DNA of 33,147 nucleotides, taken from IMG/VR virus record IMGVR_UViG_3300037195_001519, positions 1-33,147 of that record; one strand, given 5' to 3'. The notes under the pieces are model-generated. The model was not told the origin of the DNA and searched no databases. It saw nothing but the letters and a program-made list of their open reading frames with translations. This document shows, one piece after another, positions 4,848 through 30,691 of this stretch. Within the stretch, counting starts at the first letter, position 1. Each line of letters opens with the position of its first letter. This DNA comes from a virus (lineage: Duplodnaviria; Caudoviricetes). The translations under genes and the position numbers were made by a program.

Positions 4848-5305
4848 TATAAAATCTCCTTGATACAATGGTATTGCAACTCAGAATACCCCCTTTTTTT
4901 TAGGAAAGGGATAAGTCTTTGGTTGCTAAATATAATATGAATAGCGTCGATACGACGGGTTTGCTTGAGGGTCTCCTCAAACGAGTTAAGTAACTCTATC
5001 ATAATTTTAACACGTTTTTTTGCTTTAAGCGAAGGATGGGCGTGCCAAAGAAGTTCGTCTGCCTGAATAAATGTATCATCCATGATAGAAGGGGTAATAG
5101 ATGCTCCGAATAATCCGTTTAATTTATTATCTTCAAAGTAACCCAAAAACAATCCTAACCCACTTTCCATCAACATGGACACTGTCTTTTTTACAGTCTC
5201 AGGGTTAAATCTACTTGTCCCCTTTTTGTATTTCATTATGTCGTAACACTCAGACATAAATTCTACAGAACTGTCTATATCTTCCTCTTTTAAAAGCCTG
5301 ATCAT
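4847..5305 (-). CDS. GNAT-fold virion assembly protein (P22 gp14 position)
   Basis: MIRLL.EEDI, ADELLWHAHP and L.KRGYS resemble the GNAT pattern. Lies between the needle and ejection genes. Confidence 0.7.
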   Translation of the reverse strand: MIRLLKEEDIDSSVEFMSECYDIMKYKKGTSRFNPETVKKTVSMLMESGLGLFLGYFEDNKLNGLFGASITPSIMDDTFIQADELLWHAHPSLKAKKRVKIMIELLNSFEETLKQTRRIDAIHIIFSNQRLIPFLKKRGYSELQYHCIKEIL

Positions 5306-13825: not shown

Positions 13826-13854
13826 TAGAGACCCCTTGTTAAAAGGGGTCTCTA
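13826..13854 (-). terminator. Stem-loop after major capsid gene (partial terminator or mRNA stabiliser)
   Basis: Perfect 12-bp stem TAGAGACCCCTT/AAGGGGTCTCTA with a 5-nt loop and no U-tract. Confidence 0.6.
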
Positions 13855-15923: not shown

Positions 15924-16727
15924 TTAAGCTCCTTTTAATAATTGTTTTTGTTTTTGATATCGCTTCATTGCATCTTCTTTTGTATTTGTACCTGGAACAT
16001 AAAGCATTTTTATTGCTAACCGTTTTTCGGCTTCACTTAAAGATACCTCGTCACTTGACCCCATTGGTGGCTGACTGGATACTCCGTCTACAGGGTCTTG
16101 AGAACTGTATCTTTTTGATTCCTGAGTCACAGAGTGTTCAGTGTTTACCCTTCTTGAAACTTCCGCTAAAAATTCAGCATTTGTTTTCTTTCCCCACTCT
16201 GGATCTTGAAGCATTTCATTATTAACCTTATGTGCTAAATCGGTTTTTGCATTATCAGTCCCATACCAAGGGTTATAAGTTTGGAAAATTCTCATTTCCT
16301 GTTCTTGCTTTGAATCTGAGGGGGAAGATTGAGTCTCTTTTTTGGGTTCTGGTTTATTCTGGGAGGCCACAAACTCCGCATAAGATAAATTTAATTCAGC
16401 GACCTTCTCATTGTCCCCTGTTTCTGACGCTTCACGTATTGCTTGCTTATACTCTTCTTTTTTAGAATTTATTTCAGAGGAGTTATGCTTCTCTTCAAGT
16501 GATTCCAAGCGAGATGACAACGCCTCATTTTGTTGTCTTAAATCACCAACTATACGCTCCGACTCTTTCCATCTTCCATAAACCTGATTAAATCGTGGAT
16601 GCTCTGGTTTTGGCTGGTTTTCTTTTTCTTCTTTATTTTCTGTCGCTTGTGGCTGAGCTTGATCCTGACCTTGTTCTAGTCCTGGATTTTCTTCGCTTAC
16701 CGTGGACGAGTTATCTTGTTCAGTCAT
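15924..16727 (-). CDS. Capsid scaffolding protein
   Basis: Acidic disordered N-terminus, coiled coil, NPWYG.D motif and C-terminal V.LS.AEK..A helix. Confidence 0.75.
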   Translation of the reverse strand: MTEQDNSSTVSEENPGLEQGQDQAQPQATENKEEKENQPKPEHPRFNQVYGRWKESERIVGDLRQQNEALSSRLESLEEKHNSSEINSKKEEYKQAIREASETGDNEKVAELNLSYAEFVASQNKPEPKKETQSSPSDSKQEQEMRIFQTYNPWYGTDNAKTDLAHKVNNEMLQDPEWGKKTNAEFLAEVSRRVNTEHSVTQESKRYSSQDPVDGVSSQPPMGSSDEVSLSEAEKRLAIKMLYVPGTNTKEDAMKRYQKQKQLLKGA

Positions 16728-17074
16728 TATTTACCCCCCTTTACAATAAACAAGACATCCTCGTCGTTAATAATTTCGTACTTTTCACCTTCAAACTCTT
16801 GCGTAGTGCCTGCATACTTTCCCCACACAATGTTTTGACCTTTCATAAACTGATCATCGCAAGTGTCGCCTACTGCTAAAATGCAGCCCTTAGATATTTG
16901 ACTTCTTTTTACATCTTCAAGGCTAACCCCTGGCATAAACAAACCAAACTTACTAAAGACTTGTCCATTTCGGATTTCAACCTCTCGCCCGTCATATTTA
17001 AGTCCTTTATCGTCATTTTCTCTTTTTACAATTATTCGATTGTATACTGGCTGTATTGGCAATTCTTTTTCCAT
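16727..17074 (-). CDS. groES: Phage co-chaperonin GroES-like
   Basis: IQPVYNRIIVKR, GL.MP, G.ILAVG, G..IVWGKYAGT and GEKY.IINDEDVL match the Cpn10 pattern. Confidence 0.88.
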   Translation of the reverse strand: MEKELPIQPVYNRIIVKRENDDKGLKYDGREVEIRNGQVFSKFGLFMPGVSLEDVKRSQISKGCILAVGDTCDDQFMKGQNIVWGKYAGTTQEFEGEKYEIINDEDVLFIVKGGK

Positions 17075-17077
17075 TAA

Positions 17078-17299
17078 TTATTCTCCTTTTCCTTTTTTTA
17101 ATTCTATCGCCTCGATGACATCTTCGTAGCCGTCTCTCTTCCCTTGTGAAAGGCAGTAATCCTTACACAGCGAAAACATGGACTCCGAACTAAATCTGTC
17201 CTCAAGAACTCTCGACCTCATTTCTTTTATTTCTTTTACGAATTGTTTTGTAATGGGAGACGTTGACCACTCGTGCCATTCTTCTTCTGTGAATTGCAC
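17078..17299 (-). CDS. Hypothetical protein (73 aa, GTG start)
   Basis: EEW.EW..SP.TK.F motif. TAGTG overlap with the portal stop codon. Confidence 0.65.
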   Translation of the reverse strand: MQFTEEEWHEWSTSPITKQFVKEIKEMRSRVLEDRFSSESMFSLCKDYCLSQGKRDGYEDVIEAIELKKGKGE

Positions 17300-19254
17300 T
17301 AAATTTCACCCCCTTCAGAAGCTTCTTGTATTAATACTTGCTCTTGGGTTCGCTGCTCTTGTGCTTTTTGTAAGTAAATAAAACTAATATGGGCTTGTTT
17401 ATGCTTCTCAATAAGAGATTTTGCTTTTCCACTTATTGCGCCGTAGAAGTCGGACTGTTCAAATTCTTGGATAATAGCAAGATGCTGCGCGTGGTTATCT
17501 GATTCATTAACCACAACATCTTCTTCACTGATCATCTTTTGCATTTCTTGTTCTTGGGTTAATTCCACCGGTTCTTGTGTTTGTGGAAGTTTTACTATCT
17601 GCTGGATAAAAGAATCATCAATGTCTAATGTCTTCATTAAGTTAACCGTTGCCAAGTAAATGGACTCAGGATCATTTGCGGTTAAAGGATTTGAAAGGAT
17701 AGTGTCATAAACGAATTGGGCCTTAGCTGCTTTTTCCTGTCTAGATATGATATTGCTATCACTAACGGGCCTTACATCTAAAGGAGTATTAAAATCCTGT
17801 GATATAACCGCTAAGGTATCCGCTTTATTACTCCCAAATTGTTTGACAACACCATCATTTATAACAACACGATAATATTCGTCTAAATCTAAGTGGAGAG
17901 AAAGAAGCCTGTCCATCTTATAAAGCTCTTCGCCTAACGATTGATGTGTTCTTTTATGAATAGAGCTAAATACTTTTGTCCCCTGCTCAATTGCAGCTGC
18001 AACGGCAGTGGCGCTTGTATCTGAACTTGGCATAGCTCCAGTTTGTGTCTCTGTAACAGTGGTCAACCTATTAGCGTAATCTTGAAGTCCACCAAGTAAG
18101 CTAAACAATACTTGTGAAGGAGAACCAAAGTTAAATGGCATAATTGCCTTTTTGATATCATCTCCTTTTAACTTCAACTCGCTAAACTTGCCCATTTGAA
18201 AATCAATATCACCTTTCTTAGCTCCTGACCCAGATAAGGTAAACCCGCCTTGCAAGTTTTGGAGTGTTCCAGAATCTATTAATTGATTAATAATTGAGTT
18301 AACAGACTCATTCGGTCCCTCAAGCAAAAGGCCAAACCCATAACCATAAAACCCATCTGGGTTTGGTAGAAAGTCATATTTTGTAAAATATTCCATTACT
18401 TCATTAGGGTCTTTAGGGTGTACTCTTGAAACTAAACGCAACAATTCCCCTGACTGATAATCAACGGTTGCTATCATTGGCTCTTTGCTTCCGTCTTTAT
18501 TCCCTGGATCAATGTACGTATGTTGTTCTAGAATGAGCCTTGGGGATATATTGTCAGAAGACGAAGAAGGCGTGAGGCCAACATTTTTAAGATGTTGGAG
18601 CTTAACTTCATCAACTGCGGTGTTGCCTGGTTCTGATAATTCTACAGGCAGATATACCCCCTTTTTTTGTAATATCTTAATATTATTAACACTCTTATAC
18701 AGATTTTGAGTGTGACGCTCTGAATCTTCCAAATAACGGGTTGTGTAATTAACCACAAAGTCTGTAGGCGATAAATAATCACTTACAATTCGACCTTTCA
18801 CTGTGTCAAAGTAAGTTTTTCTTATGACACAACCTTCAATTGCCATTTTTAGTAATGTGACATCCATTGATTTCCTGAACTCTTTAATTTTGAAATCGAT
18901 TAAAAAGTTCCTGTATTTTTCTGTTCGATCTGCCTTTGCTTTGTCTTCCGTCTCTTCGCCAATAGGAAATGATTTTGAAATGTTTTTTGATGGTAATAAG
19001 GCCTCATATGCTCTTGCTTGGTACTGAATGCAAGCCATAGTAAGCATAGGTAAACCCACATTACTGCAATCTTCCCAAGGGAAATTTTTAGTATCCCTTT
19101 GCAACGAATAAAGCTTAGCCCAGTTTGAATGCATCTTCTCCCACTCTGATCTACTAGATAAATCCGTTTGATATCCATCTAATACTGAAGACGCTATCTC
19201 TTTTCTTTTTTCTTGTGTTAAGTCTTTTGCTATATTTATGATCTCATCAGGCAT
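17299..19254 (-). CDS. Portal protein (P22-like)
   Basis: 651 aa with D..SR.EW, FPWE..SNV..P.L..A..Q, DFVV.Y, F..Y.FLP...GFYG.G and NQLID.GTL.N motifs. Lies after TerL. Confidence 0.92.
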   Translation of the reverse strand: MPDEIINIAKDLTQEKRKEIASSVLDGYQTDLSSRSEWEKMHSNWAKLYSLQRDTKNFPWEDCSNVGLPMLTMACIQYQARAYEALLPSKNISKSFPIGEETEDKAKADRTEKYRNFLIDFKIKEFRKSMDVTLLKMAIEGCVIRKTYFDTVKGRIVSDYLSPTDFVVNYTTRYLEDSERHTQNLYKSVNNIKILQKKGVYLPVELSEPGNTAVDEVKLQHLKNVGLTPSSSSDNISPRLILEQHTYIDPGNKDGSKEPMIATVDYQSGELLRLVSRVHPKDPNEVMEYFTKYDFLPNPDGFYGYGFGLLLEGPNESVNSIINQLIDSGTLQNLQGGFTLSGSGAKKGDIDFQMGKFSELKLKGDDIKKAIMPFNFGSPSQVLFSLLGGLQDYANRLTTVTETQTGAMPSSDTSATAVAAAIEQGTKVFSSIHKRTHQSLGEELYKMDRLLSLHLDLDEYYRVVINDGVVKQFGSNKADTLAVISQDFNTPLDVRPVSDSNIISRQEKAAKAQFVYDTILSNPLTANDPESIYLATVNLMKTLDIDDSFIQQIVKLPQTQEPVELTQEQEMQKMISEEDVVVNESDNHAQHLAIIQEFEQSDFYGAISGKAKSLIEKHKQAHISFIYLQKAQEQRTQEQVLIQEASEGGEI

Positions 19255-19274
19255 TTTTTTTCTCCTTTTTCAAA

Positions 19275-19322
19275 CAAAAAAAGGCGCAACAACAAAGAAT
19301 TTTAATCCTTGTCATTGCGCCT
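19275..19322 (-). terminator. Intrinsic terminator directly upstream of the portal RBS
   Basis: 17-bp stem (14 WC + 3 GU) AGGCGCAAUGACAAGGA/UCUUUGUUGUUGCGCCU with a 7-nt loop, ending in a U7 run. Confidence 0.85.
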
Positions 19323-19389
19323 CTAGTATTTCTAGTTAGCTACAATATATTTTAAGTCTTTTTATGCCTCTAACGTCTTGTTAGTCAGC
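19319..19389 (-). promoter_or_regulatory. Tandem RNA hairpin motif GCURA-CUA(N)-loop5-(N)UAG-AGGC x2 (candidate antiterminator)
   Basis: GCUGA CUAAC AAGAC GUUAG AGGC (19389-19366) and GCUAA CUAG AAAUA CUAG AGGC (19340-19319). The second copy shares AGGC with the terminator 5' arm. Confidence 0.65.
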
Positions 19390-19609
19390 CTACTAATTTT
19401 GAGTCTTTTATCCTCGATCCTTTCTTACAATCTATTTCCTGGTAAACAACTTTTCCATCTTGAACTTTAAATGTAAAAACAATAGTCCCATGACTTAAAA
19501 AGTTTTTACAAGATGATTCAATTGGCATTAAAATGTTTTCTGCTATTTTTGATAAGTCTTGGTCCACACCTATATTATGATAACAAGTATTGATATTGTC
19601 TAGTGTCAT
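19385..19609 (-). CDS. Small DUF2292/YezD-like protein (true start possibly GTG at 19567)
   Basis: A helix followed by HGTIVFTFKVQDGKVVYQEI resembles the FGSI.I.V.DGK.V.IE pattern of DUF2292. Confidence 0.55.
   Translation of the reverse strand: MTLDNINTCYHNIGVDQDLSKIAENILMPIESSCKNFLSHGTIVFTFKVQDGKVVYQEIDCKKGSRIKDSKLVG
19574..19602 (-). promoter_or_regulatory. Sigma70-type promoter
   Basis: TAGACA-17 bp-CATAAT. The predicted +1 falls near the in-frame GTG at 19567. Confidence 0.55.
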
Positions 19610-19613
19610 ATTT

Positions 19614-21227
19614 TTAATACCCTGTTAATCGATTTCTCTTATACTTTTGGTTTCGGTCTGATTCGTCCCCTTCTTCTTCTGGCCACCAAAAATCCTCAGA
19701 AATTAATGCTAACCTATAAGCGTTTTCACACATGTCATCATCGACCTTTGATGGCTTTCCTGTCGCGTCGTACATCCAATTGCTTAATTGCCTTATAGAG
19801 ACCTGTAGGTCTCTATAAATAAAATAAGCTGGAATTTTGTTAGGAGTCCACAACATATTATTAATAGAAATAATCCCATCGTCCTTACTCTTTGTGGCCG
19901 TTTCTAACATGTAGCCATGCCTAAAAAGAACGTTTTCTACCTTGGCGTAAACAGTATTCTCATTATTCCCATCCCCTTTTGACAATGGATCAATGATAAT
20001 TCGGTTAACCCTTAATCTATAATCAAATATCTTTTTGATTATTTGCTCCCCTACCCACTCTCCATCACCATGCCCCACAATCTCAAAGGTTAAATACTTC
20101 ATGTTGTGGTGGTCAGTTGCTTCAAATAGTATGTGCTGCGGTTTGCTTGGGTGTATGTCGATGGCAATATTATGTATCCAATGACTTGGCATATCGCGTG
20201 GGCGTTCTAATATATGCTTTGCTCTATCAAATCTTAAAACTAATCCAGCCTTATACGAAGGGACCCCTCTTAACCTGGCGTCCCTTTCTTCCTCGGTTAA
20301 TCTCTTTGAAAATTGATCTACCCCTTCCTGAGTGATCCCAAAACCAATATTTGCATTGATATCCGCGTTTACGTTGTAGACAGTGTTATCAACCGTCCCA
20401 TCCTCTAACGTTGCATTTATTATCTCTTTATCTACCCAGGCCTCCTTCAAAAGAGTCATGGCATAAAATTCAATCCCTTTAAAATCAATCAATCCCCGCG
20501 AACAAGCAACGTGAATATCTCTTTTTGGCGGTTCGTCGTAAACAACTGCCATTCCATTCCACCCCTCAAAAAGCGATGCATCTTGATTGTTAGACATGAT
20601 TTCTAAAGTATTCCCTGTTTTTTCGTCCTTAAAATAACTATCTACTACCTGTTGGTTCTTGCTCCTAAATAAAGGTCTCTCTTTAGGCCATAGCTCATCA
20701 ATCTTTGCCACAACTACCGTAGCAATATGCTTTGTCCAATCCTGACCCACCCATCTAATCTTTATCTTTTGTCCTGTCCAGCCGTACAAATCCCATATCC
20801 AACCCACTTTTTCCTCTGGTTCCCACGGGAATTTTCCTGTTAAAAGGGAATAGATAAGCATAAAAGATATGAAAGTTTTTCCAATTCGGTTCGCACCTGT
20901 ATATGTGAATGTCTGATATATTCCAGAAGCAAAGGCTGCGATGATTTCTTTTTGTGGCTCGTTAAGCTCCCACTTTCCGTTAGTGCCTAAATATTGTTTG
21001 TCCTTATGGCCAAAGAATAATATCTTATTTGCTTCTTCATGGGTCTTTACCTGGACCTCTAACTCTTCCTTTTTATTTATTAGAGTCTGAAGGCGTTTCT
21101 TGTGTATAAGAAGCTGTTTCTTTTTATACTTTATTAACGCTTTTTTTTCGTTCGGGGTTAACTCGTTTTTTGTTTTGTGTTTTATGTCGCCGATTCGGAC
21201 ACTAGAGACCGGAATGTCTTTATCCAT
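19614..21227 (-). CDS. terL: Terminase large subunit
   Basis: Walker A GANRIGKT, Walker B VVYDEPP, nuclease IAIDIHP and DDDMCEN. Upstream of portal. Confidence 0.93.
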   Translation of the reverse strand: MDKDIPVSSVRIGDIKHKTKNELTPNEKKALIKYKKKQLLIHKKRLQTLINKKEELEVQVKTHEEANKILFFGHKDKQYLGTNGKWELNEPQKEIIAAFASGIYQTFTYTGANRIGKTFISFMLIYSLLTGKFPWEPEEKVGWIWDLYGWTGQKIKIRWVGQDWTKHIATVVVAKIDELWPKERPLFRSKNQQVVDSYFKDEKTGNTLEIMSNNQDASLFEGWNGMAVVYDEPPKRDIHVACSRGLIDFKGIEFYAMTLLKEAWVDKEIINATLEDGTVDNTVYNVNADINANIGFGITQEGVDQFSKRLTEEERDARLRGVPSYKAGLVLRFDRAKHILERPRDMPSHWIHNIAIDIHPSKPQHILFEATDHHNMKYLTFEIVGHGDGEWVGEQIIKKIFDYRLRVNRIIIDPLSKGDGNNENTVYAKVENVLFRHGYMLETATKSKDDGIISINNMLWTPNKIPAYFIYRDLQVSIRQLSNWMYDATGKPSKVDDDMCENAYRLALISEDFWWPEEEGDESDRNQKYKRNRLTGY

Positions 21228-23322: not shown

Positions 23323-23348
23323 TTTACTTCACCTCTCTTTATTTGTTA

Positions 23349-23378
23349 TAGTATATGCTATACTATTATAGTATGCAA
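23349..23378 (-). promoter_or_regulatory. parA promoter overlapped by 5-bp-phased TA repeat array
   Basis: TTGCAT-17-TATACT. The plus strand reads tagta tatgc tatac tatta tagta. Confidence 0.7.
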
Positions 23379-27336: not shown

Positions 27337-27395
27337 GTCTTTTTGATAACAAGTATTGATATTGTTATCTACGCACGAAAAAGGAAGGCTAATCC

Positions 27396-27427: not shown

Positions 27428-27518
27428 TATACTAAATATACCTTGCGATAGGTATGTTATATACTAAATATACCTTGCGATAGGTATGTTATATACTAAA
27501 TATACCTTGCGATAGGTA
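27428..27518. repeat. 32-bp perfect tandem repeat x2.8
   Basis: TATACTAAATATACCTTGCGATAGGTATGTTA at 27428, 27460 and 27492 (partial). Internal IR ATACCT-N6-AGGTAT. Confidence 0.95.
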
Positions 27519-27527
27519 CATAAGGTA

Positions 27528-28136
27528 CTAATCTTCTTCTTCTAGCAAAGCTAACTCTGCCTCTAATTTCATAACATCGTCTTCTTTCTCTCCGATGTCC
27601 CCTTTATACTCATTGATTCGCCCGTGTGCCATTGCAACATTTTGCGTTGACTCACCTTTTAATAACCTGGCTTTATCGAACATAATCCCCCCAGTGCTAG
27701 CTAATTGAAGCGTAGAGGCCTTCTCTACTTTATCGGGCCTCATGGCTTGATTAAATGCCATTTGGCTCTTAATGAGCAAGTCAGAGGCCATCCTGTCTTT
27801 TATCTTATCAGCAAGGTCGGTGTTCCCCAATAAATCAATATTCGGGTCATTCATCCAGCTATTAACTGTAGTTCTTCCCACTTGGCATATATCTGCGACC
27901 TGTTGATAGGTATATCCCTGTATTACAAGTGTCTTAGCAAAAACCTTTACTTCATCAGGGAACCCACTAGAACTTTTAGTTCTGGCTGGTAAATTTTCAA
28001 GCACATACCTTTGTGCCCTCTCTAGATTGTCCTTGTCTTCACCCTCATACTTCTCGAGAAATTCTTCTGGTTTTTTATTTATTAACTGATGGGGGTCTTT
28101 CTTTGGATCAGGGTTAGGATTTCTCTTTCTAGGCAT
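27528..28136 (-). CDS. Terminase small subunit-like HTH protein
   Basis: HTH (GYTYQQVADICQVGRTTVNSW), then helices with LA..GGI.FDKARLL.GESTQN. AAGGAG SD. Confidence 0.7.
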   Translation of the reverse strand: MPRKRNPNPDPKKDPHQLINKKPEEFLEKYEGEDKDNLERAQRYVLENLPARTKSSSGFPDEVKVFAKTLVIQGYTYQQVADICQVGRTTVNSWMNDPNIDLLGNTDLADKIKDRMASDLLIKSQMAFNQAMRPDKVEKASTLQLASTGGIMFDKARLLKGESTQNVAMAHGRINEYKGDIGEKEDDVMKLEAELALLEEED

Positions 28137-28184
28137 AAAAACATCTCCTTAGTATAGTATAGTCTATACTATTGTATTACATTT

Positions 28185-28778: not shown

Positions 28779-29347
28779 AGGGCAGGTAAGGGCAGGTAAA
28801 GGGCAGTTTTGAAAACAAAACGGCCCTGAGTTATCCACAGGTTTTAGCCTCGGATTTACACTTATCCACAACCAAAAGGGCAGGTAGGGCAGGTTTTTTT
28901 TATATCTTTTATTGTAAAATAAAAAAAAACAACGTTATCATATTGTTATCAATACCTCTTTTAGCTGTTTTCTTTCGTTCTATTAAGTTAAAAAAAGCTG
29001 CCCTACCTGCCCTTTTACAACAGAAAAACAAAAATTCGAGGCTAACCACCTCTTTGAAAACAGGGCAGGTATAATCTAAAAGCTGCCCTTTTGCTGCCCT
29101 TTTTACTAAAAAAGCTGCCCTTTTGCTGCCCTAAATAGCCGTTTTAGATGTTATCAAAACTATCAAAACTAAACACTGCGTTATCAAAACAGTTCTCAAA
29201 AGGTAGGTTTTGATAGTTTTGATAACAAAAAAAGAGGTTTTGATAACAGTTACGATAACAATAAAAACAGGTTTTGATAACAATTGATAACAAAAATAGG
29301 GCAGAAACAGGGCAGCTTTTGTTTCAAATCTGCCCTGTTATAGGGCA
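28779..29347. repeat. Putative replication origin: AGGGCAG and GTTATCA iteron arrays with AT-rich spacer
   Basis: 15 perfect AGGGCAG (8 forward, 7 reverse). A 19-bp IR (28874-28892/28998-29016) flanks an AT-rich core. Also a 23-bp direct repeat at 29078/29110 and a 21-bp IR at 29149-29169/29207-29227. Confidence 0.8.
28831..28870 (+). promoter_or_regulatory. Two perfect DnaA boxes
   Basis: TTATCCACA at 28831-28839 and 28862-28870, same orientation, 31 bp apart. Confidence 0.8.
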
Positions 29348-30402: not shown

Positions 30403-30496
30403 AATTTAATATACTAGCATATACTACACTATAAGATATGAAAGGGTTTATAAACAATAAATTGCCACACCTATAATAATATGACATTATTATGTG

Positions 30497-30556: not shown

Positions 30557-30691
30557 GCACAATCATTGGGCTAAAAACCCAGCAACACTATAGATTAGTA
30601 TATGCTAGTATAGCGTATATTATAAAGACAGTACTTTACTATAAGTCCATAACAGATCTATAATAGTAAGGTGTAATCCAATAAATAGAGG

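Follow-up and report, generated by a model that had tools for sequence, protein, structure and literature searches.

In phage lambda (N/nut and Q) and in phage HK022 (put), phage genes are turned on by read-through of terminators, the RNA polymerase being modified processively. Antitermination by BglG, SacY and LicT involves a single RAT stem-loop, which is held by the protein and partly overlaps an intrinsic terminator, and in the HutP system of Bacillus subtilis the regulator gene comes first, with a terminator lying between hutP and the regulated hutH side (accessible portion of PMC12591593). In the accessible portion of that source, neither phage nor DUF occurs at the head of any word. The hairpins recognized by ANTAR proteins have six-base loops with A1 and G4 and are separated by a linker of 5-12 nt (accessible portion of PMC3369931). 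A further small terminator-associated hairpin is the Moco-II RNA motif (RF01713; accessible portion of the PMC2864571 supplement), and DUF2292 is absent from the accessible portions of the supplements to PMC2864571. XtrA is mentioned solely as a member of the Xre regulon in the accessible portion of PMC4374763. Our searches found no publication on the pairing of a hairpin with a DUF2292-type gene; the subscription literature was thinly covered and a prior description is possible.

The subject here is a tailed-virus locus in which a small gene, two hairpins and an intrinsic terminator precede the portal gene. The window, by which we mean the whole stretch of 33,147 nucleotides that was analysed, is a linear virus record of ~33 kb with a completeness estimate of 85%, and its sequence is present in marine metagenome runs. 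We propose that the locus encodes a protein-held antiterminator hairpin switch of a novel and apparently undescribed type, with binding of the small protein to the hairpin as its presumed key step.

Gene order of the window

A minus-strand run of genes extends from 19254 to 30 and takes in portal, capsid, head-closure, tail, ejection and endolysin genes (Table 1). The 537-aa gene, the putative terminase large subunit, lies upstream of the terminator and hairpin gate and had no matches in the profile libraries searched. A GroES-like co-chaperonin gene is found within the head cluster (16727-17074), and the related locus L030 has one too. Directly 3' of the major capsid gene there is a perfect 12-bp hairpin (13826-13854), a possible terminator or processing site that the portal-leader switch would leave in place.

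We infer that the virus is a phage-plasmid, since the window encodes ParA and a resolvase and also contains repeat clusters and two DnaA-box matches. In a putative plasmid-like origin at 28800-29330, long inverted repeats and GGGCAG repeats are found together with two TTATCCACA boxes (28831, 28862) and six TGTTATCA boxes. Three tandem 32-nt repeats (27428-27531) lie immediately 3' of a terminase-small-like gene. Related TATAGTATA..TATACTAT palindromic boxes at 23347-23373, 28153-28179, 30410-30433 and 30589-30612 precede parA, the terminase-small-like gene and plus-strand genes, and may represent a second operator family.

Table 1. Coordinates of the portal leader, its flanking genes and the candidate control elements of the small gene
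Feature	Position	Strand	Description
537-aa gene, putative terminase large subunit	19614..21227	-	assigned by position and P-loop motif
Small ORF	19385..19609	-	74 aa from ATG 19609; family-sized 60 aa from GTG 19567
Sigma70-like promoter candidate, TAGACA-17-CATAAT	19574..19602	-	ends 6 nt before GTG 19567
25-nt element, candidate operator	19575..19599	.	overlaps promoter candidate; includes TGTTATCA box
25-nt element, second copy	27341..27365	.	96% repeat; abuts promoter-like site 27336-27308
Hairpin copy 1, GCUGA-CUAAC-aagac-GUUAG-AGGC	19366..19389	-	canonical GCUGAC flank, 5-bp inner stem
Hairpin copy 2, GCUAA-CUAG-aaaua-CUAG-AGGC	19319..19340	-	GCUAAC variant, 4-bp inner stem; candidate antiterminator
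Intrinsic terminator	19276..19323	-	17-bp stem 19322-19306/19298-19282, 7-nt loop, U7 19282-19276
Portal ribosome-binding site, AAGGAG	19262..19267	-	from sequence
Portal gene	17299..19254	-	phrog_1216 match, E 4e-17; first gene past terminator

Two hairpins and a terminator ahead of the portal gene

The sequence-only reading had described a 17-bp, U7 terminator about 20 nt before the portal start, two upstream hairpins of one motif, a UGA stop of the small ORF inside copy 1, and competition between copy 2 and the terminator at the stem base; each of these points was verified in the coordinates. The U tract is separated from the portal ATG by 21 nt, which contain the AAGGAG, and the terminator stem grows to 19 pairs in the terminator scan when G-U is included. 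Copy 1 spans the stop codon of the 74-aa ORF (19387-19385) and has no overlap with the terminator; copy 2, beyond a 25-nt linker, has an AGGC that doubles as the foot of the terminator's 5' arm, and it conforms to the GCURAC-stem-GAGGC form of the DUF2292-linked hairpin, in which the 3' end forms the terminator base. As a whole the leader folds with a z of -4.69, being more stable than 200 of 200 shuffles. Copies 1 and 2 are the only strict-pattern sites on both strands of the whole 33 kb, where 0.17 would be expected (30 shuffles), and among 20,000 shuffles of the leader one copy arose in 3 and two copies in 0.

Under a covariance model trained on 82 outside hairpins, the two copies take first and second place in the window (27.9 and 22.8 bits), the next score being 13.0. 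An earlier model, R1, contained window copy 2 and therefore served only to gather outside hairpins; the site in the related phage L090 was among the training matches of model R2, so its R2 score is not independent. Neither the window nor 20 related loci gave an Rfam match at gathering score, and a search of the leader at E up to 10 returned 19 weak matches, all far under cut-off. Identity with Moco-II was considered and rejected: the sequence is different, and the motif was absent from the matches to the leader (E up to 10) and from those to the 20 related loci. The leader showed no variants across the DNA contigs, which thus yield no within-population covariation, and no RNA run is listed among the sequencing runs that carry the window sequence.

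The hairpin family in viruses and genomes

Related sites were collected with a pattern made of the flanks plus a terminator tail, which left the inner stem and the neighbouring genes unconstrained and itself imposed the overlap of hairpin and terminator; a tighter first DNA pattern had returned 8 loci, mostly chance. Counting loci as independent of relatedness, at least two further inner pairs are found at 62 of 98 viral sites (117 matches less 19 duplicates; ~10 expected), the inner stem is paired at 54 of 121 among the genome matches listed, of which there are at least 121 (~14 expected), and the viral GCTAAC variant is paired at 15 of its 39 distinct sites (47 matches; ~4 expected). The covariation of the stem was tested on 130 unselected inner segments, the percentage paired in alignment A6 being circular. 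Positions 1-3 pair in 97, 88 and 71 of these segments versus 53, 53 and 44 in column shuffles (0/2000), with UA, CG, GC, AU and GU pairs all represented, and position 4 is not above the shuffles; the family stem thus amounts to four pairs, of which copy 2 is typical and to which copy 1 adds one. Such an excess of pairing, with compensatory changes at many loci, upholds the claim that selection acts on the hairpin as RNA structure. The hairpin is real and conserved, and apparently undescribed.

Even the strict pattern matches an estimated ~2100 genome stretches, of which roughly a third show the excess pairing; the switch is therefore no rarity. Behind 42 viral sites the first genes encode portal (2), head protease (4), sigma-factor-like proteins (6), other regulators (3) and members of unknown families (2), with no match for 25. 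In an unrelated virus contig a hairpin match of 22.2 bits lies directly 3' of a capsid-like gene (L008, 478-506).

The pairing of two copies is a local trait of the window phage. A search of the 150 nt upstream of 91 related sites returned 0 clean second copies; less perfect twins are present in L177 and L225, and inspection by eye shows them in L459 and L460 as well. The proposed resemblance to ANTAR twin geometry did not survive this survey, nor do the loops and linker agree with it. Membership of the ANTAR class was accordingly rejected with respect to the features given in the accessible portion of PMC3369931: the loops AAGAC and AAAUA have five bases, the linker has 25 nt, conservation lies in the internal loop, an ANTAR domain is lacking and twins are rare.

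A small protein that accompanies the hairpin

ORFs adjacent to the hairpin have in common a pattern of one helix followed by a beta-hairpin with [YFH]G...QDGK. Of 30 such neighbours, 6 pass the PF10055 (DUF2292/YezD) model and 9 more fall below its cut-off, while PF17356 (PBSX XtrA) is passed by 1, with 5 below. With a profile from the first viral set, a family ORF is detected at 14 of the 54 paired genome loci listed and at 0 of the 67 unpaired ones (p 4e-6), and at viral GCTAAC loci the corresponding figures are 3/15 and 0/24. The other 40 of the 54 paired genome loci listed have no family ORF in the available DNA, about a third of the loci consisting of 300-nt flanks only. Across 59 rows from several phyla the conserved residues are G in 52, Q in 45, D in 45, G in 48 and K/R in 54.

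The association also appears when one starts from the protein. A hairpin lies within 200 nt downstream of 14 of 32 distinct DUF2292 genes (37 loci less 5 repeats, with 5 of the source genomes chosen via motif loci) versus 7 of 448 control windows, the 14 including one site also found motif-first, one poor match and a few near-identical cases. This bears out the sequence-only reading on CUGAC-stem-GAGG sequences after DUF2292/YezD genes. Two more of the 32 have the pattern upstream and 16 have none nearby, and outer pairs are compensatory in some of the DUF2292-linked hairpins (GG/CC, AU/AU). A scan of 49 related virus records, mostly fragments, gave no match to PF10055. No canonical hairpin is seen near the gene at 29 XtrA loci; variant hairpin-terminator pairs are present at 10 of the 29, by patterns written post hoc. 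Within L493-L519, CCUGA...GAGG occurs at 6/29 XtrA loci and GUCC...GGAC at 4/29. The stop codon overlaps the hairpin in the window and at 8 of 36 family loci, a set chosen partly by proximity, and in L425 and L435 the family gene lies downstream of the hairpin.

How close the window ORF itself stands to this family is a matter of degree. It carries the family residues HG, QDGK, V, E and R, has a net charge of about +1 and is thus not strongly basic, and is predicted to fold as a single helix with a beta-hairpin (mean pLDDT 64.5 and 70.8 in two models, residues 1-16 of the long form being below 50). Searches against Pfam, PHROG and NCBIfam gave 0 matches; against PF10055 in particular there was none at E up to 10 (gathering cut-off 22 bits), the Pfam match to PF17356 was likewise absent, and domain searches detected no ANTAR, CAT or PRD domain. 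Direct protein searches returned the window protein itself and one long repetitive protein without a matched stretch, and a search of cultured phages for relatives gave nothing useful; a three-sequence alignment as query added three more relatives. Profiles were also built from hairpin neighbours, with the window ORF left out. One from 33 hand-picked seeds places it at rank 1 of 10,674 small ORFs (E 8.6e-5), and one from 50 rule-picked seeds again at rank 1 of 10,674 (E 0.0012; rank 1337 with a control profile). A profile of 19 true PF10055 proteins also puts it at rank 1, at an E of 1; HHalign gives a probability of 78% over 21 columns against DUF2292, and the top row of an Atlas structural search is DUF2292, below the bar. 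Fold searches with the models found no match, which does not imply a new fold, and no structural likeness to HutP appeared at Z >=5, the model being small and of middling confidence.

The direct HMM comparison suggested earlier thus came back empty, and of the DUF2292-like label what stands is a probable remote link through the neighbour profiles, formal Pfam membership having fallen away. Failing Pfam and ranking first with neighbour profiles, the window ORF is best regarded as a remote relative, not a member, of DUF2292. Its product is a candidate RNA-binding antiterminator, probably related remotely to DUF2292/XtrA-type proteins.

Promoter-like sites occur in the region at chance level (31 vs 29.1). 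From the one that precedes the GTG of the small ORF (Table 1), a leaderless 60-aa product is likely. The same promoter-GTG layout is seen in the related phage L010, and leaderless layouts are found for 3 of 37 family ORFs, all in one clade, vs 3 of 276 controls. The TGTTATCA box contained in the candidate operator occurs 12 times in the window, against 1.85 expected, and six of these are clustered at 28944-29292, at the putative origin.

Related phages

Among 160 portal-relative loci, many of them partial or repeated, a small gene lies between terminase and portal in 2, so most such phages do without it. L010 has the gene, a variant hairpin GGUAU...AGCC, identified by eye and unscored by the covariance model, and a terminator before the portal. 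In L090 the small gene precedes the portal and the hairpin-terminator lies 5 kb further on, before the head genes, a separation consistent with a trans-acting product. The hairpin-terminator site of L090 is also present in L030, whose sequence begins within the portal gene. L089, L098 and L013 are equally close relatives and have neither gene nor hairpin. The module is thus mobile and optional. Locus searches with the portal and terminase as single proteins gave nothing. L090 also has a promoter-like TTGAAA-16-TATAAT (4940-4976) 6 nt before its portal ATG, which suggests a leaderless portal mRNA.

A proposed mechanism

Because copy 2 and the terminator have four bases in common, full folding of both is impossible. 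In simulated folding of the growing transcript, the outer pair of copy 2 has a probability of 0.86-0.98 up to 19285 and of 0.00 at 19279. The terminator is favoured by 6.3 kcal/mol (7.2 with a longer tail), close to the median of 6.75 for 88 family sites (interquartile 5.2-7.5), and with an advantage of 6-7 kcal/mol for termination the predicted default is off. With copy 2 folded, 13 bp of the terminator stem persist, shifted away from the U tract. A terminator stem set back in this way should weaken termination.

We regard it as probable, with substantial room for doubt, that the small protein stabilises copy 2 and blocks termination, thereby opening the portal and head genes to transcription. 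Copy 2 would fold first in the nascent RNA and be displaced once the last terminator bases appear; the protein would bind the conserved purine internal loop and keep the hairpin folded, and RNA polymerase would then continue into the portal and head genes. That the protein holds copy 2 is drawn from the co-occurrence of hairpin and protein type. The short transcript that ends at the terminator would already encode the protein; it would probably be leaderless and start at the promoter candidate with which the candidate operator overlaps. The protein would thereby impose a threshold or delay on the late genes. Copy 1 may serve as a reserve, take part in cooperative binding, or be a site that the ribosome clears on reaching the stop codon. 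The positive-feedback late switch proposed earlier was rejected: a single terminator carries this hairpin and the gene is located upstream of it, so read-through cannot raise the gene's own mRNA.

On another reading, which we consider unlikely, the hairpin is a true antiterminator held by a host factor, RNA polymerase or the ribosome, and the small gene is either a neighbour under shared control or one that acts via translation only. The overlap of stop codon and hairpin, the many hairpins without a nearby family ORF and the weak charge of the window protein would all suit such an arrangement. Conservation of residues across phyla would be needless for a mere leader peptide, however, and a gene 5 kb from its hairpin (L090) or 3' of it (L425, L435) speaks against it as well. 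The protein might instead bind the hairpin for autoregulation of translation or mRNA stability, or to enforce termination, with late genes expressed by basal leak or from other promoters. We think this improbable. In its favour, copy 1 spans the stop codon clear of the terminator, and 13 bp of the terminator stem are left when copy 2 forms; against it, copy 2 and the family hairpins occupy the foot of the terminator stem and the energy gap is narrow, the overlap itself being imposed by the search pattern, and the downstream genes include those for portal, head protease and sigma factors.

That the motif is a palindromic DNA operator and not an RNA element seems very improbable; it is a short inverted repeat with fixed flanks, yet its inner stem is free in sequence with pairing kept, G-U pairs occur, the flanks are asymmetric and the matches are strand-specific. 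We give hardly any credence to an ordinary terminator beside chance hairpins and an unrelated orphan ORF, a reading to which the orphan status of the ORF in direct searches lends itself and which motif enrichment, gene co-occurrence and profile rank contradict.

Beyond the favoured mechanism, in which the small protein holds copy 2, a broader scheme may be sketched, which we offer tentatively and think more doubtful than not. DUF2292, XtrA and many unclassified phage proteins of 45-65 aa would belong together in a single superfamily of minimal RNA-binding antiterminators, and a separate hairpin variant would have co-evolved in each lineage. The TGTTATCA box, present in the window both over the leaderless promoter of the phage-plasmid and at its origin, would tie virion-gene read-through to DNA replication, giving an RNA-level late timer without a sigma factor or Q-like protein.

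Comparison with known systems

If the proposed switch is real, it offers a testable function for two families of unknown role, DUF2292/YezD and PBSX XtrA, adds a very small new class to the few known RNA-binding antiterminators, and explains the delay of virion genes in many phages that have no recognisable regulator of late genes. With a protein of 60 residues and a site of 22 nt, it would also lend itself to use as a compact synthetic switch.

In size, in its helix and beta-hairpin, and in [YFH]G...QDGK, the window protein resembles DUF2292/YezD (PF10055) and PBSX XtrA (PF17356), and it passes neither model. Unlike the processive systems of lambda N/Q and HK022 put, its geometry suggests one local RNA switch. 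The likeness to ANTAR is that of a tandem hairpin pair, the second overlapping a terminator. With HutP the window shares the order of regulator gene, terminator and regulated genes, whereas HutP is a ligand-activated hexamer acting on NAG repeats inside its terminator and gave no sequence match and no fold match at Z >=5 here. Compared with BglG/LicT and RAT, the window protein has ~60 aa, no CAT/PRD and no evident sensory domain; its hairpin has 22-24 nt and a different sequence, and the regulated genes are phage late genes, not sugar operons. Still, the RAT-like geometry noted at the outset has held, the stem-loop of copy 2 partly overlapping the intrinsic terminator, and on this comparison the element most likely works in the manner closest to BglG/RAT.
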